Under the pieces are notes generated by a model. That model was not told the origin of the DNA. It searched no databases and worked only from the letters and a program-made list of their open reading frames with translations. Shown one piece after another: positions 3,758-55,586 of a stretch of DNA of 64,000 nucleotides (positions within the stretch are counted from its first letter, which is position 1; each line of letters opens with the position of its first letter). Source of the stretch: Kiritimatiellia bacterium. GTDB lineage: Bacteria > Verrucomicrobiota > Kiritimatiellia > UBA8416 > JABMPJ01. Location of the stretch: contig JASLOA010000041.1 of the NCBI GenBank assembly GCA_030745755.1, positions 6,515-70,514 of the forward strand, in the 5' to 3' direction. The position numbers were made by a program, and so were the translations under genes.

Positions 3758-3790
3758 ACACTAAAGTATGCCGAAAGGCCACGAGGGGTG

Positions 3791-26870: not shown

Positions 26871-26881
26871 CCGTGCTTTAT

Positions 26882-26967: not shown

Positions 26968-27039
26968 GCATCGTGAATATGCTACGCCTTCAAAAAGGCC
27001 TTTGAAAAGAAGATCAAACCGCTTGATACTGCCGCATCG

Positions 27040-33442: not shown

Positions 33443-33465
33443 AGCCGCGCGTCCAGCGCGGCTCT
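33441..33465. terminator. perfect hairpin AGAGCCGCGC-GTCCAG-GCGCGGCTCT between convergent relE (+) and a glycosyltransferase-like gene (-)
   Basis: 10-bp GC-rich stem seen directly. It spans both stop codons and is a candidate bidirectional terminator without a clear U-tract. Confidence 0.45.
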
Positions 33466-34528
33466 AGATGCTGCATAGCCACTGGGGCAGATCTGCTGGT
33501 GTCATCATAGGAATGCCCAGGGCCGTGTAAAGATCGGTCATCAGCTTGGGCGGTGCGTCGTGGACCATCAAGGCCACCACCGGCAGGGCTGGGCGGAGCC
33601 ACTTAGTAGTCAGCAGTGTCGACGAGATATCTCCTGCCACCAGGCAGTCGTCATCCAGTAGCGTCAGCAAAACCTCCATGCCGGTTGTCGGTTCCAGGAT
33701 GGCCGTGCCCGGGAAGATCTGCTGCAGGACCTGTCGGTTCGTGATACGCGGATGGGGCTTGATCGCCACCTGCGAAGGCGCGAAGTGATCCAGCAGCGAG
33801 CGGCTGACTGCCTCGTATGTTTGCGGCGCGCCCAGGTAGCTGGCTTCGTGGGGGAGGGTGACGACCAGTTTCACTCCTTGCAGGGCTTCCGCGTACTCCT
33901 CGCCATCCGGGAGCAAGTCCCTCGCCAGTGCCTTGAACTGTGACAGGGAGAAGGGCTCAGGGGCAATTCGCACGAGCTCCTTGGGTTTGAGCAAGGGGTG
34001 CACGTGCTCAGGGAACGCCGCGTAGATCGTCTCTATCCAGTCGGACGCCCCGGTGGTCAGGGCCGGCTTGTACCAGCGGCCGATAAAGAGACGCTTGACC
34101 AGTGGGTCGATGGTGCGGTGGGCAAAGCTGCCCATGGATTTGTGCCCGAAGTAGGTTACGGCACCCTCGTCCATGTAAACGCCCTTTGGCCGGCTGCCGG
34201 CCTGTGACGCCACGTGCATGGCGTACTGGAACTCGAGGCGACGATCGTTGCCGGTAAAGATGCGCGCATCACTTATGTCGGCCAGCTGTGCTTTGATTGT
34301 CTGGAAGCGCGGTCCACGGATACGACGGCTTCCGTGGGCGTCGTGCGGCAGCACAACAACCCGGTTGAAGATGTCTGGGTGCTTTTCTGCAGTCAGGCGG
34401 AATCGATCAGCCATAGCGGCGTCACGTGCCACGATGAGCAACACACGTTCGTGATCCTCACTTTGCAGGGAAATGTTGGCTGCGATAAGAAAATGGAGAG
34501 GAGAGGATACCAGAAAGTAGTCGCTCAC
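33464..34528 (-). CDS. hypothetical GT-B-like glycosyltransferase / capsule-LPS biosynthesis protein (family uncertain)
   Basis: 355 aa. The start is a GTG at 34528, preceded by AGGGAGGG 5 nt upstream. It sits inside an LPS-type cluster; I see no firm family signature beyond a weak resemblance to GT52/KpsS-like proteins. Confidence 0.45.
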   Translation of the reverse strand: MSDYFLVSSPLHFLIAANISLQSEDHERVLLIVARDAAMADRFRLTAEKHPDIFNRVVVLPHDAHGSRRIRGPRFQTIKAQLADISDARIFTGNDRRLEFQYAMHVASQAGSRPKGVYMDEGAVTYFGHKSMGSFAHRTIDPLVKRLFIGRWYKPALTTGASDWIETIYAAFPEHVHPLLKPKELVRIAPEPFSLSQFKALARDLLPDGEEYAEALQGVKLVVTLPHEASYLGAPQTYEAVSRSLLDHFAPSQVAIKPHPRITNRQVLQQIFPGTAILEPTTGMEVLLTLLDDDCLVAGDISSTLLTTKWLRPALPVVALMVHDAPPKLMTDLYTALGIPMMTPADLPQWLCSI

Positions 34529-34538
34529 ATGTCCCTCC

Positions 34539-35573
34539 CTATCCTTGTGGATTGCTGGTGATGGAATCGAACATGTCATCAATCTTTTGTCGTGCCGAAT
34601 CGTTGAAGGCTTTGATCGTGGCTTCAACTGTCGGGTGCCTGTCAATGGCACGCTCAAGACCGTTGTGCAGCGAGGCGTGGTCTCTCTTGTAAAGCAGGTA
34701 GATGTTGCGCGGGAGTCCCACGTCCATGAGTAAGGCCTCGATCTTGCCCGAATTCGAAGGCACGGCAATGAACGGCGTGTTCTGTTGCAAGGCGAAGCAG
34801 AGCGCGTGGTATCGGCCGGTGCAGATGGCGCGCGCGGACGCGATCTGTGCGATCAGCTCCGGAGTGTCGTCTGTTGAGTGGCAGAGCGCTTTGTATCGAG
34901 GAGGGACCGCATCGGGTAGCTGGTTGGAGAGCGAGGGGAGCAGAGTATACTTGAGTCGTTTGAGCCCATCTCGCATACCGCGCGTGTGGTGCAGATGTCT
35001 TGTGAAGAGCGTTATGAAGTCCATGTCCGGGTCGTTCTTGCTCTGGTCCAATGCCCACTCGGTCCAGCTAGTGAATACAGAGTCCGTGCAGACATAGCGG
35101 CCGTTCTCTGTTCTTGGGAATATGGGGTAATCGTAGAACGTGAGATCGGGAGCATAGTCAGCATCTACACCAATGCCGGCCAGGCGCTCCTGGCTGCGGC
35201 GATCACGGACACTGATCGTTGTGCAGCGGTCCAGAACCGGCTTCCAACTCACACTGTCATTGTCTTGCCATGTCGTGTTGATGATGGCGACAGGGCGCGT
35301 AGCTTGCAGCTCCCTGCAGAGACCAAGGAGGCGACGGGCATTACGGCTGTTGTGATGGAGCGAGCCTTCCCCGTTAACGATAACCATCGATGCGGCGTCG
35401 ATCCTTTCCCTGAAGCGACCCAGTTGCGAGGGTTTTGCACTGACAGGGAGAGAGCCCGTGCAGGTCCACCCGCGCGCTGCCATTCCCCGGTGGAGATTCC
35501 GTATAACTGTCAGGCCGCCGTGGTGGTTGTCGTAGCGGGTGTCGTTGACTAGAAAATAGGAAGGGTCTGCCAT
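34539..35573 (-). CDS. polysaccharide pyruvyl transferase family protein (CsaB/WcaK-like), putative
   Basis: The C-terminal motif TGRYHALCFALQQNTPFIAVPSNSGKIEALL resembles the PF04230 core (R.H..I.A.....P.......K). Start chosen at MADPSYF (35573), overlapping the upstream gene's TAA by 1 nt. Confidence 0.55.
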   Translation of the reverse strand: MADPSYFLVNDTRYDNHHGGLTVIRNLHRGMAARGWTCTGSLPVSAKPSQLGRFRERIDAASMVIVNGEGSLHHNSRNARRLLGLCRELQATRPVAIINTTWQDNDSVSWKPVLDRCTTISVRDRRSQERLAGIGVDADYAPDLTFYDYPIFPRTENGRYVCTDSVFTSWTEWALDQSKNDPDMDFITLFTRHLHHTRGMRDGLKRLKYTLLPSLSNQLPDAVPPRYKALCHSTDDTPELIAQIASARAICTGRYHALCFALQQNTPFIAVPSNSGKIEALLMDVGLPRNIYLLYKRDHASLHNGLERAIDRHPTVEATIKAFNDSARQKIDDMFDSITSNPQG

Positions 35574-39806: not shown

Positions 39807-40817
39807 ATGAATACCGAACTGAATGTTGATGAACTGCTCAACCGGTTGGCATCGGTACGCGTCGGGGTTGTAGGCGATTTCTGCCTGGATGGCTATTGGG
39901 AGCTGGACGGCAGTCTCTCTGAGCGCTCAGTGGAAACGGGTTTGCCGACCCGGTCCGTTCGCAGTCAACGCTACACCCTGGGGGCCGCGGGCAACGTAGC
40001 CGCCAATCTGCGTGCCATGGGCGTGGTAAGCGTGTCGGTCTATGGTGTGACAGGGAGCGACCCCTTCGGCCGCCAGGAGCGCGAGTTGATGCGGGAGCAG
40101 GGAGTGGGTGTCCGCGGACTCGTCGAGCAGGACGAGAACTGGTTGACCCACGTCTTCATCAAACCGTTGGAAGACGGTGTTGAGGCCAGTCGCATTGATT
40201 TCGGCAACGCCAATCGGCTGACGGACGGCGTTGCCCGACGGGTCCTCGAAGAACTGGCGGGTAGCTGTGCCGACCTTGATGTGGTCATCATCAACCAGCA
40301 GGTCACAGGCGGCATCCATGAATCGGAGCTGTTCCAAGACGAGCTGCAGACTCTTATTGCGGCCAATCCCGACAAGCTGTTCCTTCTGGACAGTCGTGAC
40401 ATGTGCCGACGCTATGAGGGCACCATCCGCAAGATCAATGCGTGCGAAGCCATGCGGTTGATGGGAGCCGAGGTGGATCCGCTGGATCCGATCAGCGATG
40501 ACGCTGCCCGCGCCGCCGGTGTAAGGCTCGCGGAGGAGTGGGAGAAGCCGCTTTTTGTGACGCAGGGCAAACGCGGCTGCCTGGTGATCGATGGTGACCG
40601 CGCTGATGTCGTGCCCGCCGTGCCGGACAGGAGCCCCACTGATCCTGTGGGCGCAGGCGACAGTATGGTCGCAGGCATCGCTGCCGCCCTGGCCGCGGGC
40701 CATACGCCCTATGAAGCGGCGGCCTTCGGCAGCCTGGTGGCCGGCGTCACGGTGCAGAAGCTCCACCAGACTGGGACGGCCACGCCCGGCGAGATACGCG
40801 CGATCGCACAGGCGTGA
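39807..40817 (+). CDS. hldA: D-glycero-beta-D-manno-heptose-7-phosphate kinase (HldA / RfaE domain I, PfkB family)
   Basis: VGVVGDFCLDGYWE at the N-terminus and DPVGAGDSMVAGIAAALAAG (PfkB GAGD motif) are present. The gene follows two heptosyltransferases. Confidence 0.8.
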   Translation: MNTELNVDELLNRLASVRVGVVGDFCLDGYWELDGSLSERSVETGLPTRSVRSQRYTLGAAGNVAANLRAMGVVSVSVYGVTGSDPFGRQERELMREQGVGVRGLVEQDENWLTHVFIKPLEDGVEASRIDFGNANRLTDGVARRVLEELAGSCADLDVVIINQQVTGGIHESELFQDELQTLIAANPDKLFLLDSRDMCRRYEGTIRKINACEAMRLMGAEVDPLDPISDDAARAAGVRLAEEWEKPLFVTQGKRGCLVIDGDRADVVPAVPDRSPTDPVGAGDSMVAGIAAALAAGHTPYEAAAFGSLVAGVTVQKLHQTGTATPGEIRAIAQA

Positions 40818-40905
40818 CCCCTCTCCTGTTCCCGATCCCTGGCTGAAAAGGCAGTTGTGTTTCTCTGAAGACGGGCCATAATAATAGGAACCAGAGGTGA
40901 CGTGC

Positions 40906-41397
40906 ATGGGGATGTTGCGCATGAGTTCCAAGCGTGGTTTTACGGTGATCGAGATCATGATTGTGGTCACGATCATTGGCCTGCTGGCCACCCTGGCCGT
41001 TCCGCACTTTCGCAAGATCCGGCGTCGTGCCCGGAACGCGGTCTTCATAAACAATCTGCGCATCCTGAGCGACAGCGTGTTTGAGCAATACGCGATCGAG
41101 AATGGCGGGTACCCTGCCGATGCGCCGCCTGGTGTGATACCCGCGGGCATTCAGCCCTACATGGCCCGTCGGGTTCACTGGGAGGAAGGTACACCCATCG
41201 GAGGACAGTGGAACTGGGATCGGGGTGCGACACGTACCGACAAGATCAACGGAGTCTACGCTTCCATCGAGGCAGTGGGTGTGAGCAGAACCGCCGACCA
41301 GATGCGTGAGTTGGACGGTGAATTTGATGACGGAAATCTCCTGACGGGTATGTTTCGCCAGACGCCGACAGGATACATGCAGATAATGGAACACTAG
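40906..41397 (+). CDS. prepilin-type N-terminal cleavage/methylation domain protein (type II secretion / type IV pilus pseudopilin-like)
   Basis: MGMLRMSSKRG|FTVIEIMIVVTIIGLLATLAVP is a class III signal peptide. The ATG at 40906 has AGAGGTGA 5 nt upstream. Confidence 0.8.
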   Translation: MGMLRMSSKRGFTVIEIMIVVTIIGLLATLAVPHFRKIRRRARNAVFINNLRILSDSVFEQYAIENGGYPADAPPGVIPAGIQPYMARRVHWEEGTPIGGQWNWDRGATRTDKINGVYASIEAVGVSRTADQMRELDGEFDDGNLLTGMFRQTPTGYMQIMEH

Positions 41398-41409
41398 AGC
41401 GAGGAATCC

Positions 41410-41904
41410 ATGAGTCAGCCTTCGCAGCCGCCGGTCAAACGCAGCAACATCTTCAGCAATCCACGCGTACAGTGGCGGATCGTTCTGACGTTTTCCGCCA
41501 TCGCCCTCGTCTTCGCAGCAACGAGCTGGTACGTCAGTTTGGGGGCCATCGATGCCGTGCATAGCGAGGTGGATCGGCTCGACCTGACCTCTATCCAGGA
41601 ACGCGACCTGCATATTATTGCGCGCGAACAGCGGACCGTGCTCAATATCCAGTTGATGATTCAGACGTTTGCCGCCTTCGTGGTTCTCACGATGGCTGCC
41701 GTCGTGCTGTCGCATCACATCGGCGGGCCGCTCCACCAGCTCAGCGCCTACCTGGCTGAGGTCGTGGAAGGAGAAGTGCAGCCCCGGCGCATCGGCTTCC
41801 GTCACCACGACTTCTTCGAGGATTTGCCCGGTCTCTTCAATGCCTTCCAGGCGAAGTTCGGCATCCTCAAGGAAGAGCCCCGTGCTCCCGCCGGGGAGGA
41901 CTAA
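41410..41904 (+). CDS. hypothetical two-TM membrane protein
   Basis: 164 aa with two hydrophobic helices and a C-terminal amphipathic region. It lies 12 nt downstream of the pseudopilin gene and has no recognisable family. Confidence 0.45.
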   Translation: MSQPSQPPVKRSNIFSNPRVQWRIVLTFSAIALVFAATSWYVSLGAIDAVHSEVDRLDLTSIQERDLHIIAREQRTVLNIQLMIQTFAAFVVLTMAAVVLSHHIGGPLHQLSAYLAEVVEGEVQPRRIGFRHHDFFEDLPGLFNAFQAKFGILKEEPRAPAGED

Positions 41905-41938
41905 TGTCAACTTCTACTACTCCCAGGTAGAAATCGCT

Positions 41939-45378: not shown

Positions 45379-45611
45379 ATCACTCTCCTCATGATCTGAA
45401 CGCGCCACTCTACACCCTTCGCACTTACCGCTCAACTTCATCTTTGAAATACCGCGTTCATCCTGTACCCGGTCCCACACCCAAACCAACCGGAATTTCC
45501 ACCCCTCAAAAGCAAACAAAGCGGCGAAGAATCGCCGCTGGCCTCCCCATTGCTGACTTTGCAGACGTGGAGTGAGCTGATACAGTCAGAAGCAAATGGA
45601 GATGTGATCAA

Positions 45612-46595
45612 ATGAGAAAATCGACGGTATGGCTCGTACTGGTGGCCTTGTGCAGTGGAATCTGCGTGACAGACGCGGTCGCCTGTACGAAGCCGGTGTT
45701 CCGCTATGCCCTGGAGCGTTGGCGTGCAGCGCCGTACGGGCTGGCCGTCCTTCACAAGGGGGAACTCGACAGGGCTGCCAGGGACGAGATTTCGTCCATT
45801 GTTCCCGAGGACGCCTACAACTGGTCCGTCGCTTACGGCAACGTTGATGGAGAGCTTCCGGCGGGGGTGATCAAAGCAGCCTGGGATGCCAACCCCGATG
45901 CCGCACGCCTGCCTCTGGGGTTCGTGCAGATACCGCGCGGCGGCGGCACGGAAACGAAGCCTGTCTGGACGGGAACGCTGGATAGCGCCGGTTTGGCCAG
46001 GCTGAAGGCGTTGGTTTACTCGCCCACGGTATTGAGCGTGATTCGCTCGATCTGCAGCGGCGACACCGCCGTCTGGCTGATCCTTGACAGCCCCGACAAG
46101 AAAGCAACCAGGACGTTTACCAAGACGCTTGAGAAGAAGCTCGCTGCTCTGCAGAAGGAGCTCAAGCTCCCTCACGAGTTGGATCCCCTTGATTCCGCGT
46201 ACGATGATGACCTGGCGCCGGGTATCCCGATGAAGCTCGAGTTCTCCATCCAAAATGTTGACCTCAAGGCTCCGGAGACGGCCCTGCTGAACGCGTGCTT
46301 GAGCGCATGGGCTCCCAAGTTGATGTCGATGGAAGAGCCGCTTGCTGTTCCCGTATTCGGTCGCGGCAGAGCCCTGGCGGTCTTTACCCCCGACGAGCTG
46401 ACCGACGAGGTGCTCGCGGAGGTCTGCCAGTTCCTGGTCGGGCCTTGCTCCTGCAAGGTCAAGGCGTTGAATCCCGGGTTTGATCTTGTCATGCCGTTTG
46501 CCTGGGAGCGGGCGCTCTTGGATGAGTCATACGACGTGGATGCCGTCATCAAGAGCCTGGCTACGACCGGCGCAGAGAGCGCTAAAGGAAAATAG
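45612..46595 (+). CDS. hypothetical secreted protein (N-terminal signal peptide), first gene of the 10-gene operon
   Basis: MRKSTVWLVLVALCSGICVTDAVAC is a signal peptide. The protein is 327 aa with no recognisable family, and ends 5 nt before the FtsX-like permease gene. Confidence 0.5.
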   Translation: MRKSTVWLVLVALCSGICVTDAVACTKPVFRYALERWRAAPYGLAVLHKGELDRAARDEISSIVPEDAYNWSVAYGNVDGELPAGVIKAAWDANPDAARLPLGFVQIPRGGGTETKPVWTGTLDSAGLARLKALVYSPTVLSVIRSICSGDTAVWLILDSPDKKATRTFTKTLEKKLAALQKELKLPHELDPLDSAYDDDLAPGIPMKLEFSIQNVDLKAPETALLNACLSAWAPKLMSMEEPLAVPVFGRGRALAVFTPDELTDEVLAEVCQFLVGPCSCKVKALNPGFDLVMPFAWERALLDESYDVDAVIKSLATTGAESAKGK

Positions 46596-46600
46596 CAACG

Positions 46601-47863
46601 GTGAAGGTCAGGATATCCCATCTCTTCTGGCGTGAATTGACGTTCCGTTCTGGCGCGTTCCTGCTTGGCCTCGTCGGGGTTGCCGCCATGGCCGCCTGCC
46701 TCACGGGCGCGCGGGCTTTTCTGAAGGCGCACGATGCCGAAACCGAGAAGCTTACCGGTGCCCTGGAGGAACGCTCCACCGAGCGCATGACAGAATTGCG
46801 CGATGCGGCCAGGAAGTTCTCCAAGAACCTGGGGTTCAACTGCATGTTGCTTCCCCCGAAGCAGCGCCTCGGGGATCTCTACGCCACGGGCCGAAGCACG
46901 CAGTTCTTTGCCGAAGCCGATGTGGCTGCGATGGTCGATGCACAGTCAGCGACCCTGAACCACATGAGGCCGATTCTCCGTGAACGTGTGTCCTGGCCGG
47001 AGCAGCAGCGTGACATCATCCTGGTAGGGGTACGTGGCGAGGTCTACATCAAGGCGCCTCGATGGCAGAAGCCCATCGAAGAGGCCATCGATCACGACAA
47101 GGCGCATCTCGGGTTTGCGCTTGCCCGGGAACTTGAGCTGAAGCCGGGTGGGTCCCTGAAGCTCATGGGCCGTACCTTCACGGTTGAACACATTCTACCG
47201 CAGGCAGGCGGTGAGGATGATATCGCGGTGCGTGTCAGCCTTGAGACCGCGCAGGAGCTTCTCGATAAGCGTAACAAGATCAGTGCTGTGCTGGCACTCA
47301 TGTGCAATTGCGCCAATGGCGACCCGGACATTGTCCGCCGCGAGATGAACAAATACATCCCCGGGATCCAGGTGGTTGATTTCACCGTGCGTGCGCGGGC
47401 GCGCCAGACCGCACGGAGCGCCATTGCGGAGGGGACTGCCGCCGAGGTGAACGATATCAAGGAAAGCCGCGCAGCACTTCGAACGCAGATCGCCGGTTTC
47501 TCCCGCGTGCTCGTGGGACTGGTAACCGTGGGGACCGTGCTGCTTCTCAGCGTGCTGACCCTCAACAATGCCCGCGAAAGACGCGGCGAGGTCGCGATGC
47601 TGCGTGCGCTCGGTGTCCGCGCCTGCGGCATCCTGGGCCTGTTCCTGATGAAAGCACTTCTCGTTGGTGCCGTCGGCGGGATCATCGGCTGCGTCGTCGG
47701 AGCCTTCGGAACCCGGCTGATTGCGGGAGAGGGGGCACGCATCTCGTTGGTCTATGGTGGCGGCGTGTTTGCCGTGACCGTAGGGATTGCCCTTGTTGCT
47801 ACGCTGGTTCCGGCTGCCCGCTCTGCCGCGGAGGATCCGGCCGGGATTCTTAACCAGGAGTAG
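46601..47863 (+). CDS. FtsX-like ABC transporter permease (MacB/LolCE-type: 4 TM with a large periplasmic domain)
   Basis: TM1, then a ~250 aa periplasmic domain containing a coiled-coil stretch, then 3 C-terminal TM helices (..LRALGVRACGILGLFLMKALLVGAVGG..). GTG start. Confidence 0.7.
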   Translation: MKVRISHLFWRELTFRSGAFLLGLVGVAAMAACLTGARAFLKAHDAETEKLTGALEERSTERMTELRDAARKFSKNLGFNCMLLPPKQRLGDLYATGRSTQFFAEADVAAMVDAQSATLNHMRPILRERVSWPEQQRDIILVGVRGEVYIKAPRWQKPIEEAIDHDKAHLGFALARELELKPGGSLKLMGRTFTVEHILPQAGGEDDIAVRVSLETAQELLDKRNKISAVLALMCNCANGDPDIVRREMNKYIPGIQVVDFTVRARARQTARSAIAEGTAAEVNDIKESRAALRTQIAGFSRVLVGLVTVGTVLLLSVLTLNNARERRGEVAMLRALGVRACGILGLFLMKALLVGAVGGIIGCVVGAFGTRLIAGEGARISLVYGGGVFAVTVGIALVATLVPAARSAAEDPAGILNQE

Positions 47864-47865
47864 CT

Positions 47866-49398
47866 ATGCCGAAACGTATTCGAAAGGGTCCCCTCGTCAT
47901 TGGCTGCTCGGCCCTGCTATTCGTGGTGCTGACATTGTTGCTGTTTACGACCGAACCCAAGCCCGCCGCGGACGCTCCGGAAAGCCGTCCGCTTGTTCTC
48001 TTCTGCGCTGCGGGCATGCGTATGCCGATTGAGGAGATCCGCGCTGCGTTCGAAAAGGAGTGCGGCGTCCGGGTCGATGTCCAGTATGGCGGCTCCAACA
48101 CGTTGCTGAACCAGATGCAGATCTCCAAAAAGGCGGATCTCTATCTCGCGGCCGACCGTGCCTACGTCGCCCGGGCCCGCGAGATGGGACTGGTCAGGGA
48201 GATTCTGCCGATCGCACGCATGATGCCTGTGATTGCGGTTCCCGAGGGTAACCCCAAGCGTATCTGGTCCATCGATCATATTCTGAAGCCCGGCGTGAAG
48301 CTGGCCCTCGGCAACCCTGAGCAGGCGGCAATAGGTAAGGCGGCGCGCGATGCACTGGTGCGTTCCGGCCACTGGGAGCAGGTCGAAGCCCTGGCCCGTG
48401 AGAACGGGGTCTTCAAGCCCACTGTTCCCGATGTAGCCAACACGGTGAAGATCGGAAGTGTGGATGCGGGTATCATCTGGTCGGCAACGGCCAGCCAGTT
48501 CGAGGGCATTGACGGGGTCCGTATCCCCGAGTTGGACAGCGCCGCCAGCGTGATCTCGATCGCCGTGGCCGCGGATACCTCGGCATCTGTTGATGCGCTC
48601 AACTTCGCGCGCTACGTCACGGGTGCAAACCGGGGACTGGAAGTGTTCGCGCGATTGGGGTACGAGTCGGTTGATGGCGACCCCTGGGAAGCCAGGACGG
48701 ACATCACGTTCTTCGCCGGGTCTGTCAACCGTCGCGGACTGTCGGAAGCCATCAAGCGTTTTGAAACGCGCGAGGGTGTTCGCGTGAATACCGTGTTCAA
48801 CGGTTGCGGTATCCTGACGGCCCAGATGCGTACGATCCACAGTGATGGCGAGTTTCCCGACGCCTACATGGCGTGCGACCAGTACTATCTCGACGTTGTC
48901 CAGGACCTCTTCGGTGAAGGGACGCAGATTTCTAAGACGCGAATCGTGATCGTGGTTGCGGAAGGGAACCCGAAGCGCATCCAGTCGCTCGAAGACCTGG
49001 CCCGTCCCGGTATTCGACTGGCGGTCGGTCAGCCGGAACAGTGCACGATCGGTGTGCTGTCGCGTCAGCTACTCGAGTCCGTTGGGCTCTACAAGAAGCT
49101 GCTGGAGAACAACGTCGTCACGCAGACGGCGACATCCGCAATGCTTGTGCCGGCCGTGACGACCGGCGCTGCCGATGCCGTGCTTGCCTACCGGACCGAC
49201 ACATTGGCTGAGGCTGACAAGGTTGATGCCATCGGTATCGACTCACCACTCGCCAAGGTCGTCCAGCCGTTTGCGCTTTCCCGCAAGAGTGATCAACACC
49301 TTCTGGGTACGCGTCTTTTTGAGACGATCACCGAAGCCCGGGCCGAGTTCGAAGCCGCTGGCTTCGACTGGCTGCTCGAGGGGGAGTTGATGCCGTGA
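47866..49398 (+). CDS. tandem-duplicated ModA/WtpA-type oxyanion (molybdate/tungstate-like) ABC substrate-binding protein
   Basis: 510 aa with an N-terminal TM/signal anchor. Two consecutive ModA-like lobes start at LVLFCAAGMRMPIEEIRAAFEKECGVRVDVQYGGSNTLLNQ... and ITFFAGSVNRRGLSEAIKRFETREGVRVNTVFNGCGILTAQ..., each with the GxVDAGIIW / ADAVLAYRTD C-lobe motif. Confidence 0.7.
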   Translation: MPKRIRKGPLVIGCSALLFVVLTLLLFTTEPKPAADAPESRPLVLFCAAGMRMPIEEIRAAFEKECGVRVDVQYGGSNTLLNQMQISKKADLYLAADRAYVARAREMGLVREILPIARMMPVIAVPEGNPKRIWSIDHILKPGVKLALGNPEQAAIGKAARDALVRSGHWEQVEALARENGVFKPTVPDVANTVKIGSVDAGIIWSATASQFEGIDGVRIPELDSAASVISIAVAADTSASVDALNFARYVTGANRGLEVFARLGYESVDGDPWEARTDITFFAGSVNRRGLSEAIKRFETREGVRVNTVFNGCGILTAQMRTIHSDGEFPDAYMACDQYYLDVVQDLFGEGTQISKTRIVIVVAEGNPKRIQSLEDLARPGIRLAVGQPEQCTIGVLSRQLLESVGLYKKLLENNVVTQTATSAMLVPAVTTGAADAVLAYRTDTLAEADKVDAIGIDSPLAKVVQPFALSRKSDQHLLGTRLFETITEARAEFEAAGFDWLLEGELMP

Positions 49399-50234
49399 TG
49401 GAACGTCCCCGTTCGGCATGGAAGCCGCCCGGCAAAGGGGCTGACCGCCTCTTTATCGCTGGCATGGCGATCATGCTGGGGGCCTACACGCTGCTCATCC
49501 TGCTCATGCTCGTGGCCGACTTCGCGTATGTCGGGGGCGTTGCGGATGAGGGAGCGTTCCTCACGTCCTTCGTGAAGGCGTTTAAGAGTCCCGAGATTCG
49601 CAGCGCCATGACCCTGACGATGATCTCGTGCACGCTGGCCGCCATTCTTTCGGTCTGGGTCGCCGTTCCGGCAGGCTACCTGCTGTCGCGCTGTACGTTT
49701 CGCGGCAGCCGCTTCATCGACGCGTTGCTGGACATTCCGATTGTGCTGCCGCCGCTCGTGGTGGGGCTGAGTCTCCTGATTCTCTTTCAGTTTCTGCCCG
49801 TTGCGGTTCGTGAAGCCGTCGTCTATGAACGCCCGGCTGTTGTATTGGCCCAGTTTGCTGTCTCCTGCGCCTTTGCCGTGCGCATCATGCGCGCGGCCTT
49901 TGACCAGATCGACGAACGTTGTGCTCTCGTGGCGCAGACCCTGGGATGCTCCCGGCAACAGGCTTTCTTGCGGGTCGAGCTTCCGGAGGCCTGGCCCGGC
50001 GTGCTGACCGCAGCCACGATTGCATGGGCACGCGCCCTGGGTGAGTTCGGGCCGCTGCTCATCTTCGCAGGCGCCACGCGTAACAAGACCGAGGTGCTCT
50101 CCACGACCGTGTTCCTGGAACTGAGCATTGGTGACCTGTCCGCTGCCGTGACCGTCTCGCTTATCATGGTGGCCGCCGCCATCGCCGTCGTGATGACTGC
50201 CCGCACCTGGGGCAGTAGGAATATGAACCTATGA
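49395..50234 (+). CDS. ABC transporter permease, ModB/CysTW family
   Basis: 6 TM helices with the EAA-like loop (..ALGEFGPLLIFAG..). It overlaps the binding-protein gene stop by 4 nt. Confidence 0.8.
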   Translation: MMERPRSAWKPPGKGADRLFIAGMAIMLGAYTLLILLMLVADFAYVGGVADEGAFLTSFVKAFKSPEIRSAMTLTMISCTLAAILSVWVAVPAGYLLSRCTFRGSRFIDALLDIPIVLPPLVVGLSLLILFQFLPVAVREAVVYERPAVVLAQFAVSCAFAVRIMRAAFDQIDERCALVAQTLGCSRQQAFLRVELPEAWPGVLTAATIAWARALGEFGPLLIFAGATRNKTEVLSTTVFLELSIGDLSAAVTVSLIMVAAAIAVVMTARTWGSRNMNL

Positions 50235-50890
50235 TCAAGCTAGAGAACATCCATATGAAGCAGGGCGCCTTTGAGCTCCGTGACCTGACTCTTGAGGTGC
50301 CGCAGGGCGCCTATGCTGTCCTGATGGGGGCATCAGGGGCAGGAAAGACGACGCTTATCGAACTGCTTTGCGGGCTGCGCTTTCCACAGCGTGGACGGGT
50401 CATTATCGGGGGGCGCGATATGACCCATGCCGTTCCCGCGGCACGTGAGGTCGGATACGTTCCCCAGGATGGTGCGCTGTTTAAGACGATGACTGTTCGC
50501 GAGCAGCTGGGCTTTGCGTTGGACCTTCGCCACGTTGCGGGGGACGACGTTGCCCTGCGCGTGCGGGAGATCGCGGAGATGTTGGACATTGCGCACCTGC
50601 TCGACCGCTACCCCAGTGGACTGAGTGGGGGCGAGCGACAGCGGACCGCGCTTGGACGGGCCCTGTCGTTCCGGCCCAAGGTGCTTCTGCTCGATGAGCC
50701 GTTGTGTGCCCTCGACGACGAGACGCGTGAGCGCATCATGAACCTGCTGCGCCAGGTACAGCAGCAGATGGGCGTGACGACCCTGCATGTGACACACAAC
50801 AGGCAGGAGGCCGAGGAATTGGGGACGATGGGGATGAAGATCGCGGAAGGGAAGATCATCCCGCTGGACTTGAGCGGAGGAAACGAATGA
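50231..50890 (+). CDS. ABC transporter ATP-binding protein (ModC/WtpC-like, lacking the C-terminal TOBE domain)
   Basis: GASGAGKTT, LSGGERQRTALGRA and LLLDEPLCALD are present. The protein is 219 aa. Confidence 0.85.
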   Translation: MIKLENIHMKQGAFELRDLTLEVPQGAYAVLMGASGAGKTTLIELLCGLRFPQRGRVIIGGRDMTHAVPAAREVGYVPQDGALFKTMTVREQLGFALDLRHVAGDDVALRVREIAEMLDIAHLLDRYPSGLSGGERQRTALGRALSFRPKVLLLDEPLCALDDETRERIMNLLRQVQQQMGVTTLHVTHNRQEAEELGTMGMKIAEGKIIPLDLSGGNE

Positions 50891-51132
50891 AAGTCGAAGT
50901 GGAATACACGGCGCAACTCAAGGTGAAGACCGGTGTGTCAGCGGATTCGTACGAATTGGACGAGGGCGCCCGGGTTTCCGACTTGATCAAGGCTGTCGCG
51001 GCGCAGCACGACATCGCGGAATTTCTGCCGTCGAGTCTCCTCTGTTTTGTTGGTGGCACCCAGGCGGATGATGATCAATCCCTCTCCGACGGCGACAGCG
51101 TCACGCTCCTCAGCCCAATCTCCGGAGGTTAG
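50887..51132 (+). CDS. MoaD/ThiS-family ubiquitin-like sulfur carrier protein (C-terminal GG)
   Basis: 81 aa beta-grasp-sized protein ending ...DGDSVTLLSPISGG, with 4-nt overlap to the upstream ATPase gene. Confidence 0.8.
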   Translation: MKVEVEYTAQLKVKTGVSADSYELDEGARVSDLIKAVAAQHDIAEFLPSSLLCFVGGTQADDDQSLSDGDSVTLLSPISGG

Positions 51133-51135
51133 GCC

Positions 51136-51903
51136 ATGGAACCTTCTAAGACAACACTGACAGACGGGGAGCGGGCTACCTACGAGTGGCAGCTCGACGT
51201 TCCCGGTTTCGGAGAAGCGGGGCAACAGAAGCTGAAGGATGCCTCCGTTCTCGTGTCGCGTGTCGGAGGCCTTGGCAGCGTGGTGGCCTACGAGCTGGCC
51301 GCTGCCGGGGTAGGGCGCATGGTGCTGGCGCACGCCGGCGACATCAAACACTCCGATCTCAACCGGCAGTTGTTGATGACGCATGATGCGCTTGGGACGG
51401 CCCGCGTGGCGTCGGCGGAGCGGCGACTGCTCGACCTCAATCCACGGCTCGAGATTGTCAAGGTGCCTGAGAATGTATCCGAGGCAAACGCGGCCAGGCT
51501 GGTTGGTGATGTTGATATCATCGTCGACTGCGCCCCTCTATTTGAAGAACGGCTGGCCATGAATCGTGCGGCGGTGGGCCAGGGGAAACCCCTGGTGGAG
51601 TGCGCCATGTACGAGTTGCAGGCGCAGATCACGACCGTGATTCCCGGGGAGACCCCGTGCGTTGCCTGTCTGCATCCCGAGCCCCCGCCTGCCTGGCAAC
51701 GACGCTTTCCGGTCTTTGGCGCCGTCTCGGGGACGGTCGGCTGCCTGGGGGCGATGGAAGCCATCAAGGTGCTTTCGGGGCTTGGTGAGCCCCTGGCAGG
51801 GAGAATGATCACCATGGACATGCGGCATATGAGCTTCCATACCTTGAAGCTCAAGCGTCGCGGTGACTGCGAGGTATGTGGCAACCCTAATGCTGAGACC
51901 TGA
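51136..51903 (+). CDS. ThiF/MoeB/HesA-family E1-like adenylyltransferase
   Basis: VLVSRVGGLGSVVAYELAAAGVGRMVLAHAGDIKHSDLNRQ (Gly-rich ATP motif) plus the CVAC / CEVC zinc CxxC pairs. It begins 3 nt after the MoaD-like stop. Confidence 0.8.
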   Translation: MEPSKTTLTDGERATYEWQLDVPGFGEAGQQKLKDASVLVSRVGGLGSVVAYELAAAGVGRMVLAHAGDIKHSDLNRQLLMTHDALGTARVASAERRLLDLNPRLEIVKVPENVSEANAARLVGDVDIIVDCAPLFEERLAMNRAAVGQGKPLVECAMYELQAQITTVIPGETPCVACLHPEPPPAWQRRFPVFGAVSGTVGCLGAMEAIKVLSGLGEPLAGRMITMDMRHMSFHTLKLKRRGDCEVCGNPNAET

Positions 51904-53008
51904 TCAACAGATTCGATATGCGCGGCACCTCTCGCTTCCCGGGTTCGGGAGCGAAGCGCAGGAGCGGTTGCTTGCCGGTTCTGTGCTGCTCGTGGGAGCC
52001 GGCGGGCTGGGGTCTCCGGCTGCCTTGTACCTGGCCGCGGCCGGGGTGGGGAGGTTGGTGATCGTTGACGATGACCGCGTGGACCTGACGAACCTGCAGC
52101 GCCAGGTTCTGTACAACACCGCAGGCCAAGGAAAGCCGAAAGCGGAATCTGCGCGCGAGGCGCTGACTAGCTTGAATCGGGACGTTGAGGTCGAGGCCGT
52201 CAACGAACGCTTTGCGGAGAAGAACGCGCGCGACCTGGTCCGGTCGTGTGACATCGTTCTTGATGGTGCGGACAACTTCCCTACGCGCTATCTTATCAAT
52301 GATGCCGCCTATCTTGAGAAGCGTCCCGTGGTGCACGGCTCTATTCACCTTTTCGAGGGGCAATGCACCGTGTTCGCTCGCGATAGGGGGCCGTGCTATC
52401 GCTGCCTCTTTCCCAGCCCGCCTCCACCGGGCGCTGTGCCGTCCTGTGCCGAGGCAGGCGTACTGGGTGTCCTGCCCGGGATGATCGGCGTTGCCCAGGC
52501 GACGGAAGCGATCAAGCTGTTGACCGGCCTGGGCGACCCGTTGGTCGGGAAACTCCTCATGTACGATGCCCTGGCGATGCAGTTCCGGACGCTGCAAATC
52601 AAGCGTCGGCCTGAGTGCCCTCTCTGTGGTGATTCCCCGTCCATTACGGAGGCCCAAACCATCGCATTCTCCTGTCCCACTGCCGAAGCCCCCGAGATCG
52701 AGGTGTCAGACCTGCAACCGTTGCAGGCGGAAGAGCAGCCCTGTCACCTCCTCGATGTGCGCGAAGCGCGGGAAGTCGCACTGGGTATGATCCCGGGCAG
52801 CACCCATATTCCGCTTGGCGAGCTCGAGGATCGAATGGCGGAAGTCACCCCCTGGCGGGATGAGCAGGTCATCTGCATTTGCCAGGTGGGGCAGCGCAGC
52901 CTGCGCGCGGCTGCACTGCTGCAACATAATGGATTTGGGCAAGCCGTCAGCCTGCGCGGCGGATACGCGGCTTGGTTGATGACGCAATTAAGGGAGAACG
53001 GATCATGA
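51890..53008 (+). CDS. moeZ: MoeB/MoeZ-type adenylyltransferase with a C-terminal rhodanese domain (sulfurtransferase)
   Basis: IRYARHLSLPGFGSEAQERLLAGSVLLVGAGGLGSPAALYLAAAGVGRLVIVDDDRVDLTNLQRQ, CYRC...CPLC, and the rhodanese active-site loop ICICQVGQRS. Start chosen at the ATG at 51890 (MLRPDQ); a GTG at 51863 is possible. Confidence 0.85.
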   Translation: MLRPDQQIRYARHLSLPGFGSEAQERLLAGSVLLVGAGGLGSPAALYLAAAGVGRLVIVDDDRVDLTNLQRQVLYNTAGQGKPKAESAREALTSLNRDVEVEAVNERFAEKNARDLVRSCDIVLDGADNFPTRYLINDAAYLEKRPVVHGSIHLFEGQCTVFARDRGPCYRCLFPSPPPPGAVPSCAEAGVLGVLPGMIGVAQATEAIKLLTGLGDPLVGKLLMYDALAMQFRTLQIKRRPECPLCGDSPSITEAQTIAFSCPTAEAPEIEVSDLQPLQAEEQPCHLLDVREAREVALGMIPGSTHIPLGELEDRMAEVTPWRDEQVICICQVGQRSLRAAALLQHNGFGQAVSLRGGYAAWLMTQLRENGS

Positions 53009-53445
53009 GCTTCTTTACCGATGTAAGTCCAACCCTGCTTCTTCTCGGTCTCGCTGCCGGGATCCTCAGTTCCATGCTCGGCGTCGGGAGCGGAATCCTG
53101 CTGGTTCCGTCCATGGTGCTGATCTTCGGGCTGGCCCAGAAATCCGCGCAAGGTACGGCACTTGCCGTCATGGTGCCCATGGCCATGGTTGGTGCCATCC
53201 GCTATATCTCGAATCCGGACATTGAGATCAGTTTTGCCCAGGTCGCATTGCTTGTACCCGGGGCGATGATCGGGGCGCTCATCGGGTCGGCCATTGCAGC
53301 CCACGTTCCCAATGAAGTGCTGCGTCGCCTTTTCGCCATCTTCCTGCTGGTTGTGGCCGTGCGGATGCTGCTGCCCAAACGGGGCACCCGGAAGGCGCCT
53401 GCCTCACAACCTGCAGAGCAACTTGCTAATGGAGAACAACAATGA
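53005..53445 (+). CDS. half-size (4-TM) TauE/SafE (TSUP)-family anion exporter
   Basis: 146 aa with LLLGLAAGILSSMLGVGSGILLVP (TSUP Gly-rich motif). ATGA overlap with the moeZ stop. Confidence 0.65.
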   Translation: MSFFTDVSPTLLLLGLAAGILSSMLGVGSGILLVPSMVLIFGLAQKSAQGTALAVMVPMAMVGAIRYISNPDIEISFAQVALLVPGAMIGALIGSAIAAHVPNEVLRRLFAIFLLVVAVRMLLPKRGTRKAPASQPAEQLANGEQQ

Positions 53446-54086
53446 TCGAGCTTAACGATATTTCAAAATCCTACAGATCTGCCCGCGGTACCCCGGTTGA
53501 GGTGCTGAAGGGCATGAGTGTCAGCGTCGAAGCGGGCGAGTTTGTCTCTGTCACCGGGCCGAGCGGTTGTGGCAAGAGTACGTTGCTTCTCATTGCCGGG
53601 AGTCTGCTGCATCCTGACGGCGGCAGTGTGGTCATCGACGGTCGCGATTTCACGGCCATGAACAGCGACGACAAGGCGCATCAGCGTGCAGAGACCATCG
53701 GGTTTGTCTTTCAGCGTTTCCACCTTCTGCCTTACCTGACCGTCCGCGAGAACATCCTGGCCGGTGGGGTGGCGTTGAAGCGTTCCTCCGACGAGGTCAG
53801 CGGGCGTGCCGAGGAATTGATGGAGAAACTGGGGATGGTCCGGCGTGCCGATCACCTTCCGGGGGAATTGAGTGTTGGCGAGATGCAGCGCACGGCGTTG
53901 GCGCGTGCCTTCCTGAATGGTCCGAAGGTGATTCTCGCGGATGAGCCCACCGGGAACCTCGACCCTGAGAATGCCGAGATCGTGATGAAAGCCCTGTCCG
54001 GTTTTGCCGGCGAAGGCGGCGCCGTCCTAATGGTCACGCACCATCCTGCGGATGCCGATCGGGCGGACCGGCAGTTGAAGATGTAG
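53442..54086 (+). CDS. ABC transporter ATP-binding protein, MacB/LolD/FtsE-type (likely partner of the FtsX-like permease at 46601)
   Basis: GPSGCGKST, LSVGEMQRTALARA and ILADEPTGNLD are present. The protein is 214 aa. Confidence 0.85.
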   Translation: MIELNDISKSYRSARGTPVEVLKGMSVSVEAGEFVSVTGPSGCGKSTLLLIAGSLLHPDGGSVVIDGRDFTAMNSDDKAHQRAETIGFVFQRFHLLPYLTVRENILAGGVALKRSSDEVSGRAEELMEKLGMVRRADHLPGELSVGEMQRTALARAFLNGPKVILADEPTGNLDPENAEIVMKALSGFAGEGGAVLMVTHHPADADRADRQLKM

Positions 54087-54304
54087 TATCTACAGAGCAG
54101 GGCCGGTGGAGTTGGTCGTGTAGCCGGTGTAGAAGCGTTCCGGATGGCTCTGGCTTTGCAGGACGTAGACGTAGAAGAAGGTGTGGTTGCTCATGGGTTG
54201 GCTTGCCCGGCTTCGTGTTCCACTTCGTCGTGGCTTGCCGAGTCGTAGTTCGGAGCGCTGGGGTGGCCCGTCTTCGCTTTCGTCGCTACGCTCCGAACGA
54301 AGAC

Positions 54305-54379
54305 TGGCACCCCCTAGGGGAATCGAACCCCTCTTTCCGGGATGAGAACCCGATGTCCTAGCCGATAGACGAAGGGGGC
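54305..54379 (-). tRNA. tRNA-Glu (anticodon CUC), CCA encoded
   Basis: The reverse complement folds as acceptor GCCCCCT/AGGGGGT, D-arm GTC-TATCGGCTAG-GAC, anticodon stem TCGGG/CCCGG with loop TTCTCAT (CTC), T-arm GGGG-TTCGATT-CCCC, then G-CCA. Confidence 0.85.
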
Positions 54380-54584: not shown

Positions 54585-55586
54585 ATGATTCGTTACGGAC
54601 TGACTCTTGTGGCTGTCGGGCTTTTTCTACTCCCGGCAGCAGTTCTTGGTCAAACCGAACTCGCCGCTATCATGCGGGACGAGTACGCACTGGGACTGAC
54701 TCCAACGGTACGGAGTGCCGGCATGGGAGGCGGCTACCTGGGTGTGGAAGGGGTTCAGAGCATGAACCCGGCGGCCTTGGCTCGCGCCGGACGGAATGTC
54801 ACGGCTACCTATGGCATCTACAGCCACGACACCGGGCCGGATGCTCATCGCGGCCGCATTGACGCAACGCTTGCTGCACCCAAGATCGGTGGCGCAGCCC
54901 GCCTTATGCTCGACCACGTTTCCAGTGACGGGGCGGACCCCACCATGATTGCCGGTGGCGCGCCCATGGAGTACGACAGCACAACCCTCGGCCTGCAGTA
55001 TGGTCGTGATGTGAGCGACTGCCTGGCCCTCGGCTTTGGTGCCTACCCCTACGAAGAGGCCAACGTGGATGTCACCACCCCGGGCGGCACAATGAGCGGG
55101 GAAGGGATGAGCCAGGTGGGCAGCATCCAGTTCGGCGCGCTGGGACGCCTCTGCGACATGGTAAACGTCGGCGTTCAGGTTATCCACATCATCGACGAGC
55201 TCCAGGTGACGCTTCCTGACGGGACCAAGATGCAAGACGACTTCAAGATCGACTACGTGGCCGCTGGCGTGGCCATCACCCCGTGGGATGGGGGCTTGGT
55301 TGTCGTCGATTACTGGAATGGCGACGTGGACGGCCGGTCCGCGCCGGGTGTCGAATTCGATGCCGACATCGACCGTTGGAACATCGGTGTGGAACAGCGC
55401 GTTCTGGATGCAGTCGACCTGCGCGTGGGCTCAAACAACAGTGGCCTGACCGCCGGATTCACCTGGCGTATGTGCGAAGCAGCGACCCTGGACTACGCCT
55501 ACGTGAGCGAGGCACTGAACGATAAAGCTGACGGCATATTCGGCGAGACCGAGCAGCACACCGTGGCAGTCTCCTGCGCATTCTGA
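54585..55586 (+). CDS. hypothetical outer-membrane beta-barrel protein (signal peptide, C-terminal aromatic residue)
   Basis: MIRYGLTLVAVGLFLLPAAVLGQ signal peptide, an alternating amphipathic pattern, and a C-terminal ...VAVSCAF. Confidence 0.55.
   Translation: MIRYGLTLVAVGLFLLPAAVLGQTELAAIMRDEYALGLTPTVRSAGMGGGYLGVEGVQSMNPAALARAGRNVTATYGIYSHDTGPDAHRGRIDATLAAPKIGGAARLMLDHVSSDGADPTMIAGGAPMEYDSTTLGLQYGRDVSDCLALGFGAYPYEEANVDVTTPGGTMSGEGMSQVGSIQFGALGRLCDMVNVGVQVIHIIDELQVTLPDGTKMQDDFKIDYVAAGVAITPWDGGLVVVDYWNGDVDGRSAPGVEFDADIDRWNIGVEQRVLDAVDLRVGSNNSGLTAGFTWRMCEAATLDYAYVSEALNDKADGIFGETEQHTVAVSCAF

Follow-up and report, generated by a model that had tools for sequence, protein, structure and literature searches.

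Why should a bacterium pack a gene for a small sulfur carrier and two genes for E1-like proteins into one cluster with two different ATP-binding cassette (ABC) transporters? The question was raised by a 64,000-nucleotide (nt) stretch of DNA from a Kiritimatiellia bacterium (contig JASLOA010000041.1 of assembly GCA_030745755.1, positions 6,515 to 70,514; hereafter the window), in which ten co-directional open reading frames (ORFs), named g1 to g10 here, occupy positions 45612-54086 of the plus strand. We found that these ten genes form one operon-like unit, and that they are the elaborated Kiritimatiellia version of a module which is conserved across the Planctomycetota-Verrucomicrobiota-Chlamydiota (PVC) superphylum and is anchored as a whole by the secreted protein g1. 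The module is built from known kinds of parts and appears undescribed; an earlier interpretation made from the letters alone (the sequence-only reading) had regarded it as possibly new, and no description of this gene cluster was found in the literature.

The ten-gene operon and its relatives

The genes and the profile matches on which their names rest are given below, all on the plus strand.

45612..46595, plus: g1, a secreted protein of 327 amino acids (aa) with a signal peptide and a predicted tandem thioredoxin fold
46601..47863, plus: g2, an FtsX/MacB/LolC-type ABC permease (PF02687, 51 bits against a cutoff of 25.5; hydropathy profile)
47866..49398, plus: g3, a membrane-anchored tandem ModA-fold binding protein (two SBP_bac_11/ModA-like halves)
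49398..50234, plus: g4, a ModB/NifC-like importer permease (PF00528, BPD_transp_1; alternative GTG start at 49395)
50231..50890, plus: g5, an importer ATPase of 219 aa without a TOBE domain (ABC_tran, its sole domain-family match above the Pfam cutoff)
50887..51132, plus: g6, an 81 aa ThiS/MoaD-fold protein ending in SPISGG and a stop (generic ThiS profile PF02597, 38.2 bits against 22.5)
51136..51903, plus: g7, a degenerate E1-like (ThiF-fold) protein (PF00899, 178.8 bits over the full profile)
51890..53008, plus: g8, a predicted canonical MoeB/MoeZ-type adenylyltransferase fused to a rhodanese (NF006444, 452.3 bits against 449)
53005..53445, plus: g9, a half-size TauE/SafE (TSUP) membrane protein of 146 aa (PF01925, 89.7 bits against 32.6)
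53442..54086, plus: g10, a LolD/MacB-type ABC ATPase, below either named subfamily (LolD 185 bits against 308; MacB 184.6 against 966)

The nine junctions are all tight. With the most plausible starts (ATG at 49398 for g4, at 51890 for g8 and at 53005 for g9) they measure +5, +2, -1, -4, -4, +3, -14, -4 and -4 nt from g1 to g10, and the public gene calls on contig JASLLN010000006 (GCA_030747025.1) agree with them. No terminator-like or sigma-70-like site was seen on the plus strand inside the cluster, in consensus scans that performed no better than shuffled controls. The sequence-only reading had described ten packed genes with gaps of this size forming a single operon-like unit; its ORFs, coordinates and gaps were recovered as claimed, and its family calls were all reproduced by Pfam and NCBIfam, g1 being without a family.

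Relatives of the cluster were collected by a genome scan with one genome per species, in which 562 loci encode a g1 relative. The ten window proteins were searched against 80 of these 562 loci (numbered with the prefix L), each with 10 kb flanks, and synteny was counted over the 43 loci having at least 7 kb downstream of g1. The usual order in relatives was g1, FtsX gene (g2), ATPase gene (g10), g3, g4, g5, a ThiS-like gene (g6, not always present) and the E1-like g7; this core order was found in Verrucomicrobiota and Planctomycetota at L009, L017, L019, L023, L025, L050, L052, L055, L071 and L079. The FtsX and ATPase pair accompanied g1 in 25 of the 43 loci, the importer trio g3-g5 in 16, the trio plus g7 in 12 and all six in 8, while g1 stood alone in 9. 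Transporters combined with carrier and E1-like genes thus recur in Kiritimatiellia, Verrucomicrobiota and Planctomycetota, which bears out the functional link between them that had been proposed from the window.

The complete ten-gene order was found again in L086, and since the same genes recur there in the same order with a g1 only about 55% identical, the arrangement is not a matter of chance. It is also present in L094 with one gene added, coding for a TonB-receptor Plug protein after the FtsX gene. The expectation that the ten-gene order would extend through PVC genomes was therefore borne out for the core and for the full order of L086 and L094, and it failed for the MoeZ-type g8 and the TauE-type g9, which iterative profiles over all loci placed in no more than 3-4 distinct loci, those of the Kiritimatiellia type and, for TauE, L095. 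The module mostly occurs without g8; orthologs of g9 occurred only in L086, L094 and, at full length, L095, so that TauE was recruited twice, at different positions. Both g8 and g9 are lineage additions and do not belong to the conserved core.

Some single loci deserve a description of their own. The inserted gene of L094 (4612-6564) codes for a 650 aa Plug-domain protein, like a TonB-dependent receptor, and separates the FtsX gene from that of the tandem binding protein; its presence inside the cluster fits an uptake role. In L095 the full-length TauE of 247 aa (3025-3768) lies directly upstream of a g1-like gene, and its N-terminal AVPVFRYGMEK resembles the VPVFRYALERW motif of g1, which may be coincidence. 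In L055 alone, a chromate transporter gene (PF02417; 14451-15632, minus strand) converges on the end of g7, so that a further oxyanion transporter adjoins the module there.

Carrier, E1-like proteins and importer

The carrier g6 passes the generic ThiS profile and stays far below both MoaD cutoffs (30.2 bits against 66.15 for TIGR01682 and 32 against 49.5 for TIGR01687). Its C-terminal GG is exposed and was kept in 12 of 12 sequences, namely g6 and all 11 orthologs. No moa, moe, mog or thi gene, the MoaD partner gene moaE included, was found by Pfam among about 50 larger ORFs of the window (mostly at least 180 aa), a scan that did not systematically cover ORFs of moaC or moaE size, and none of moaA, moaC, moaE, mogA or moeA was among the recurrent families of about 90 related loci. 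A scan for riboswitches and other RNA families over the operon region and seven related loci returned tRNAs only, without any molybdenum cofactor (Moco), thiamine pyrophosphate or S-adenosylmethionine riboswitch. The claim that this is neither a Moco nor a thiamine locus was upheld.

The protein g7 is clearly of the MoeB/ThiF kind: E. coli MoeB and ThiF are its best PDB matches (E about 5e-36), it is equally close to both, and it is 36% identical to g8. It remained under the NCBIfam equivalog cutoffs (220.7 bits against 449 for NF006444 and 187.5 against 266 for NF004281). The part that ThiF and MoeB residues play in binding ATP and Mg2+ has been established (PMC12596934), and alignment of g7 to MoeB (1jw9) and ThiF (1zfn) revealed the following replacements.

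MoeB Arg14, Trp18 in g7: the trans-acting Arg that contacts the ATP gamma-phosphate (ThiF R11)
MoeB Gly38, Arg42 in g7 (RVGGLG): the first Gly of the GxGxxG nucleotide loop
MoeB Asp130, Pro134 in g7: the residue that contacts the ATP phosphates and binds Mg2+ (ThiF D127)
MoeB Cys187, absent in g7: the crossover-loop cysteine

The zinc Cys4 site, made of two CxxC pairs, is retained. Across phyla, 119 family members with 70-82% identity carry these substitutions without exception, as does every module-linked g7 ortholog. Because the residues for ATP and Mg2+ and the loop cysteine are replaced invariantly, g7 is very likely not an adenylyltransferase. As far as we could find, no degenerate bacterial clade of MoeB/ThiF has been described in the literature.

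All the expected motifs were present in g8 (YARH, GAGGLG, DGADN, SCAEAG and CYRC/CPLC), and its rhodanese loop CQVGQR (CxxGxR) is of the active type. It passes the MoeB cutoff narrowly and falls below that of the MoeZ model (NF005902, 362.9 bits against 647). Judged by these motifs, g8 is the sole predicted canonical adenylyltransferase of the two E1-like proteins, and the earlier assumption of two working E1 enzymes had to be given up. We also considered that g7 and g8 might pair as a heterodimeric E1, where the partner subunit must donate the trans-acting Arg, a residue missing from g7.

Orthologs of g7 were also seen in other surroundings. In two Symmachiella-like Planctomycetota contigs (L091, 8656-12210, and L093, 8479-12186) the ortholog is flanked on one side by a LarA-N-like protein and on the other by an M20 peptidase. 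The LarA-like protein is about 430 aa long and gives a weak match to LarA-N, the N-terminal domain of lactate racemase; the same protein occurs a few kb from g1-g2-g10 in L008 (8100-9317) and L014 (15413-16651).

The binding protein g3 has an N-terminal membrane anchor followed by two halves (about residues 39-272 and 273-510) with the class II binding-protein fold of the oxyanion cluster. Its family comprises more than 1,000 proteins of this tandem build, annotated everywhere as molybdate-binding proteins. Against the ModA model TIGR01256 (cutoff 62.5 bits) the whole protein scored 112.4 bits, a score to which both halves contribute; half 1 alone passed marginally with 69.7 bits, and half 2 alone stayed under the cutoff with 47.5 bits. 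The anion ligands of E. coli ModA, which we take to be Ser12, Ser39, the NH groups of Ala125 and Val152, and Tyr170, correspond by alignment to G50, S77, I156, V190 and W205 in half 1. There the Ser39 equivalent S77 is invariant and surrounded by small neutral residues, a ModA-like neutral pocket. In half 2 the same positions hold V/S, C314, I395, T423 and Y442, the last being the retained Tyr170 equivalent, and three invariant or near-invariant cysteines, C314, C337 and C393, occupy the positions of ModA Ser39, Ala58 and Val123. Neither half reproduces the full E. coli ligand set. Thus the duplicated ModA of the sequence-only reading was found again as two tandem ModA-like halves, of which the second, with its score and its pocket cysteines, did not live up to that name; a second pocket lined with thiols argues against a plain ModA.

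The structure model of g3 has a predicted local distance difference test (pLDDT) score of 89.7, and it matched ModA-like, sulfate-binding and WtpA structures almost equally, so these fold scores do not separate molybdenum or tungsten binders from sulfate binders. Sequence models of sulfate and thiosulfate substrate-binding proteins reached at most 27 bits. The permease g4 scored 176 bits with the NifC-like model TIGR01581, 145 with modB, 99-122 with sulfate CysT/W and 117 with WtpB, all below cutoff, and the best NCBIfam matches of g5 were likewise below cutoff (WtpC 223 bits, CysA-type 190, ModC 161). From these scores the substrate of g3-g5 would probably be a tetrahedral oxyanion or a related compound. 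Two further loci concern the architecture of g3. In L087 the two halves are separate genes (3056-3952 and 5832-6662) flanking the permease and ATPase genes, and the tandem protein may therefore have arisen by fusion of two binding proteins, or else have been split there by fission. A 629 aa homolog, P0301, carries an N-terminal ferredoxin with two [4Fe-4S] clusters before the membrane anchor and the two binding-protein halves. This case stands alone and could be either a real fusion or a gene-calling artefact.

The secreted protein g1, its ABC partner and the giant propeller proteins

Kiritimatiellae, Planctomycetota and Verrucomicrobiota together supplied more than 816 homologs of g1, none of them named. 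Common to the family are a signal peptide, an Ala-Cys junction (AC-x-x-PVFRYALERW) and, further on, a GPCSCxVKxxNPG motif, with three conserved cysteines (C25, C279 and C281); most of its distant members carry a C-terminal membrane anchor that the g1 of the window lacks. No Pfam or NCBIfam model matched g1, a Pfam search with all 24 aligned family members yielded one match to a domain of unknown function at chance level, and the family profile found no match among PDB sequences. The AlphaFold model was confident (pLDDT 89.8), and Foldseek returned weak matches (E 1e-3 or worse) to the b-b' domains of ERp57, to Wind/ERp29 and to archaeal disulfide oxidoreductases. Because these are multi-thioredoxin proteins, g1 is assigned from its model as a secreted, protein disulfide isomerase (PDI)-like tandem-thioredoxin protein, with a CxC motif instead of CxxC. 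Two other identities were rejected. When compared with the lipobox consensus, positions -2 and -3 before the conserved Cys were not lipobox-like across the family alignment, which speaks against a lipoprotein, and the apparent sulfatase-type CxPxR motif has in fact the spacing C-x-x-P-x-x-R.

The permease g2 has an FtsX domain, 1+3 transmembrane (TM) segments and a periplasmic loop of about 260 aa, and scored 39.5 bits with the lolCE model (cutoff 362). In 25 of the 43 loci the g10 ortholog comes immediately after the FtsX gene. Because of this adjacency in relatives, g10 is the partner of g2, as the sequence-only reading had presumed, and in the present lineage the two have been parted by the g3-g9 block. 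The pair should not be taken for granted as one of two exporters, the role in which it had been cast, since FtsX/MacB-type systems are periplasm-facing mechanotransducers and not proven exporters from the cytoplasm to the outside. The other supposed exporter, g9, covers positions 1-118 of the 237 of its profile with about 4 TM segments and is without the full two-repeat architecture (about 8 TM) of TauE/SafE. The scheme offered by the sequence-only reading, in which an oxyanion is imported, sulfur is passed on by the carrier and a thio-product leaves the cell, is a conjecture.

In relatives, g1 was found to be translationally coupled to giant secreted proteins of 1000-1600 aa. They have a signal peptide, two beta-propellers of the pyrroloquinoline quinone (PQQ)-like type and usually a lectin-like domain (Laminin_G_3 or malectin), and many also have a Rossmann/methyltransferase-like domain with a GGFVVHLGCGDG motif. 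The following were located.

L087, 6765-10004: giant protein upstream of g1
L089, 6075-10004: giant protein upstream of g1
L090, 6329-9997: giant protein upstream of g1
L094, 1-2203: giant protein upstream of g1
L086, 1916-5182: giant protein upstream of g1
L040, 6870-11561: fusion of a giant propeller protein with g1

In L087, L089 and L090 the giant PQQ_2 propeller proteins end right at the start of g1. An ORF of at least 750 aa lies directly upstream of g1 in 25 of the 62 loci with enough upstream DNA; two of these flagged ORFs that were checked proved unrelated, a glycoside hydrolase of family 2 (GH2) in L086 and a flavin (FAD) oxidoreductase in L088. No giant propeller protein was present among the larger ORFs of the window.

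The surroundings of the operon are unrelated to it. Upstream, on the minus strand, there are genes for an aldo-keto reductase, an alcohol dehydrogenase and PfkB kinases, and the 92 nt divergent gap between the aldo-keto reductase gene and g1 contains a G+C-rich hairpin followed by a T-run (45520-45539, minus strand). Downstream there are tRNA-Glu, lipA (lipoyl synthase), prmA and a phosphoenolpyruvate carboxykinase gene, and the first plus-strand terminator-like feature after g10 is the following.

54194..54219, plus: hairpin (54194-54209) with a T-rich tail (weak; from a consensus scan only)

The tRNA-Glu(CTC) gene lies just past the operon end (54305-54379, minus strand), and beyond it a plus-strand ORF of 333 aa (54585-55586) without a Pfam match was seen only in contigs of the same species. 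The remaining larger ORFs of the window, about 50, are housekeeping or envelope-polysaccharide genes by Pfam. Among them, a protein of 1189 aa (188-3757, minus strand) combines a TMEM260-like protein O-mannosyltransferase domain with tetratricopeptide repeats, in a region rich in envelope-polysaccharide genes (glycosyltransferases of families GT2 and GT9, GDP-mannose dehydratase, UDP-glucose dehydrogenase, pyruvyl transferase). Predicted ORFs without a Pfam family lie at 33464-34768, 40747-41910, 12838-13806 and 26878-27846, all on the minus strand.

Known systems, rival explanations and a possible mechanism

Several described systems resemble parts of the module. The closest neighbourhoods of carrier and E1 genes are those of class 4e (Iyer, Burroughs and Aravind 2006, PMC1779556; Wolinella HcyS/HcyF type), which combine a GG-ended beta-grasp carrier, an E1-like gene and an anion ABC transporter, as is the case here. 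Class 4e always includes JAB and SirA plus sulfate-assimilation or sulfhydrylase enzymes, and its E1 has no rhodanese (PMC1779556). In contrast, no JAB, SirA, sulfate-assimilation or sulfhydrylase gene was found among the ten genes, in the flanks or downstream of g7 in relatives; moreover, the module has one degenerate E1-like protein and one with a rhodanese, and it contains g1 and the MacB-type pair in addition. The pairs MoeZ/CysO, PdtF/PdtH and QbsC/QbsE share with g8 an E1 fused to a rhodanese near a GG-ended carrier; they have an acceptor (CysM or scaffold enzymes), which the module does not. In clusters of the pyridine-2,6-dithiocarboxylate (PDTC) and thioquinolobactin type, MoeZ and the carrier are joined by a JAMM protease and by enzymes that form the scaffold or act as AMP-ligases. 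No scaffold-forming enzyme, AMP-ligase or JAMM protease accompanies the carrier and E1-like genes here, whether within the ten-gene set or, in relatives, downstream of g7.

Two kinds of E1 relative bear on g7. Non-catalytic E1-like domains include the inactive adenylation domains of eukaryotic heterodimeric E1s and the E1-like 'C' proteins of azoline cyclodehydratases. Like them, g7 has kept the fold and lost nucleotide-binding and catalytic residues, which would imply a binding or scaffold role; unlike them, it is a stand-alone, MoeB-sized protein with an intact zinc Cys4 site, paired with a GG-ended ThiS-like protein and beside an importer. HesA, the ThiF/MoeB paralog of nif clusters, and MoeB cannot replace each other, and the phenotype of HesA ties it to the handling of molybdenum and sulfur (PMC6361004); it provides a precedent for a MoeB-like paralog with such a role outside Moco. 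The likeness extends to the annotation of g7 as 'HesA/MoeB/ThiF family' and to the NifC-like porter as best model of g4; HesA is described with a nucleotide-binding domain (PMC6361004) where the g7 motifs are degenerate, a contrast that depends on that description of HesA, and there are no nif genes here.

Among transporters, importers of the ModABC, WtpABC and NifC type give the best family, sequence and fold matches of g3-g5 and have the same three-part, binding-protein-dependent organization. They differ from g3-g5 in that g3 is a membrane-anchored tandem of unlike halves with cysteines in the second, that g5 has no TOBE domain, that neither a Moco riboswitch nor a mod regulator is present at g3-g5, and that the trio is embedded between g1/FtsX and the ThiS/E1-like genes. 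Type VII ABC systems (MacAB, LolCDE, FtsEX) share with g2/g10 the FtsX domain, the 1+3 TM segments, the large periplasmic loop and the LolD/MacB-like ATPase. None of their partners (a MacA-type adaptor, TolC, LolA/B or an amidase activator) was found with g2/g10, the constant partner of which is the tandem-thioredoxin protein g1.

We tentatively interpret the module as a system of the cell envelope for acquiring a tetrahedral anion of the molybdenum, tungsten or sulfur type, or a thiophilic derivative of one, that is coupled to thiocarboxylate chemistry, an interpretation in which our confidence is real and somewhat short of even. Starting from the gene structure, the family and fold assignments, the residue substitutions and the synteny, which are directly established, we infer which class of substrate is taken up, each step of the transfer and what g1, g7 and g9 do, as follows. 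The anion would be captured by g3 and imported by g4 and g5, while g8 would adenylate g6 and load it with sulfur through the rhodanese cysteine, giving a g6-thiocarboxylate. The protein g7, unable to adenylate, may act as a non-catalytic receptor or scaffold for the C-terminal tail of g6, for the imported anion or for both, and sulfur would be passed on there. In the periplasm, g1 together with g2/g10 could carry out ATP-powered work, either thiol/disulfide handling or a handover from an outer-membrane or surface partner, and g9 might transport a small anion of sulfur, for instance the sulfite that a rhodanese reaction leaves behind.

A number of observations weigh against this interpretation. 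The strongest partner of g1 in relatives, the giant beta-propeller protein, is absent here, and the proposed mechanism leaves it unexplained. The absence of g8 from most loci indicates that thiocarboxylate formation is not intrinsic to the core. In seven Verrucomicrobiota loci g7 was present without a ThiS-like gene, and the g7 orthologs from LarA-N-like/M20 contexts are still 73-74% identical; their occurrence in unrelated contexts means that g7 may be a general PVC protein and not one dedicated to the module. No conserved acceptor gene followed g7 in ten distant loci, each of which has different genes there. To these must be added the scores of g6 and of the second half of g3 below the MoaD and ModA cutoffs, the failure of the g3 fold to separate molybdenum and tungsten from sulfate binders, and the riboswitch scan that returned only tRNAs.

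Four other explanations were weighed. That the locus is ordinary molybdate uptake beside Moco carrier genes (g3-g5 as ModABC, g6 as MoaD, g7/g8 as MoeB/MoeZ, with g1, g2 and g10 as mere neighbours and moaA, moaC and moaE elsewhere) seems unlikely to us, though it agrees with the public annotation of g3 and g7, with the passing of the ModA cutoff by whole g3 and its half 1, with the MoeB equivalog score of g8, and with the frequent clustering of mod and moa/moe genes. MoeB itself is only rarely in one operon with MoaD (PMC1779556). The MoaD scores of g6, the lost catalytic residues of g7, the Cys of g3 half 2 in place of the ligand Ser, and the lack of a Moco riboswitch and of moaA, moaC, moaE, mogA and moeA within the scans described above all speak against it, and g1 with the FtsX pair cannot be chance neighbours because they co-occur with the importer in three phyla. 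Sulfur assimilation, in which g3-g5 import thiosulfate or sulfate, the rhodanese of g8 moves sulfane sulfur onto g6 for the synthesis of cysteine, methionine or a cofactor, and g9 exports sulfite, would account for the closeness of SubI and Sbp structures to g3 (almost that of ModA), for the good scores of g4 and g5 with CysT/W/A models, for the active-type rhodanese loop and for the annotation of TauE family members as sulfite exporters. ThiS/E1 genes located near sulfate/sulfite ABC transporters, or in other cases near sulfite transporter genes, have been published and point the same way (PMC1779556). We nevertheless give this explanation little credence: the sulfate and thiosulfate binding-protein models score so low, the cluster has no CysM, MetY, sulfite reductase, enzyme of adenylyl sulfate or phosphoadenylyl sulfate (APS/PAPS) metabolism, JAB or SirA, which define the published class (PMC1779556), g8 and g9 are missing from most loci, and g1, the FtsX pair and the degenerate g7 are left unexplained.

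A different role is suggested by the giant proteins that end at the start of g1 and by the propeller-g1 fusion: the PDI-like g1 and the MacB-type motor might fold, load or operate surface propeller/lectin giants, with the importer and the ThiS/E1-like genes supplying or recycling a small factor and the giant itself being encoded elsewhere in this genome. The long ORFs upstream of g1 (with the two unrelated ones among them), the giants in the close relatives L086 and L094, and the resemblance of g1 to PDI b-b' domains and PDI-related chaperones are in its favour. As the window shows no giant among its larger ORFs, the structural matches of g1 are weak, and there is no known reason why such a service should need an oxyanion-type importer and an E1-like protein, we consider it quite improbable. 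Least credible, and very unlikely, is a thio-metallophore cycle, which takes up the thio-product idea of the sequence-only reading: g6 and g8, together with g7, would build a thiocarboxylate-type chelator for secretion by g2/g10 or g9, and the metal complex would come back in by way of an outer-membrane receptor and g3-g5. In its favour, PDTC and thioquinolobactin are products of MoeZ/MoaD-like pairs, pyoverdine is exported by the MacB-type PvdRT, the Plug protein sits inside the L094 cluster, and a soft metal complex would fit well into the Cys-lined pocket in the second half of g3. On the other side, a thio-metabolite pathway is not indicated when neither the window nor the relatives contained a scaffold-building or acceptor enzyme, an AMP-ligase or a JAMM protease; in addition, the binding protein and permease are of the oxyanion and not the siderophore class, the conserved E1-like protein is degenerate, and the receptor was found in one locus only.

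Returning to the anion acquisition system, we also put forward a more specific version of it, which is bold and rather improbable. The former ATP-phosphate site of g7, with its new Arg42, its retained Arg77, Gln78 and Arg90 and no Mg2+-binding Asp, could have become a site for the imported anion beside the thiocarboxylated tail of g6. Sulfur would then be transferred directly onto the anion, for example to give thiolated molybdenum or tungsten, and the Cys-lined half of g3 together with g1 would handle the thiophilic form in the periplasm, possibly supplying the giant propellers, as an unrecognised trans-envelope system of PVC bacteria.

Taken as a whole, the system stands a real chance of representing a new kind. 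Should the module work as one functional system, then it defines an unannotated secreted family of more than 800 members (g1) and a large, highly conserved clade of degenerate E1-like proteins that have kept an activatable ubiquitin-fold carrier as their companion; such a degenerate E1 bears on how E1/ubiquitin-like pairs gain non-catalytic roles. For the more than 1,000 so-called molybdate-binding proteins, the pocket residues suggest that the second half is almost certainly not ModA-like in binding molybdate, and that mis-annotation may be wide. If the module does act as one system, sulfur-carrier chemistry would be linked in a new way to the uptake of nutrients in Planctomycetes, Verrucomicrobia, Kiritimatiellia and Lentisphaerae, phyla that are abundant in the environment and the gut and whose envelope biology is poorly understood.

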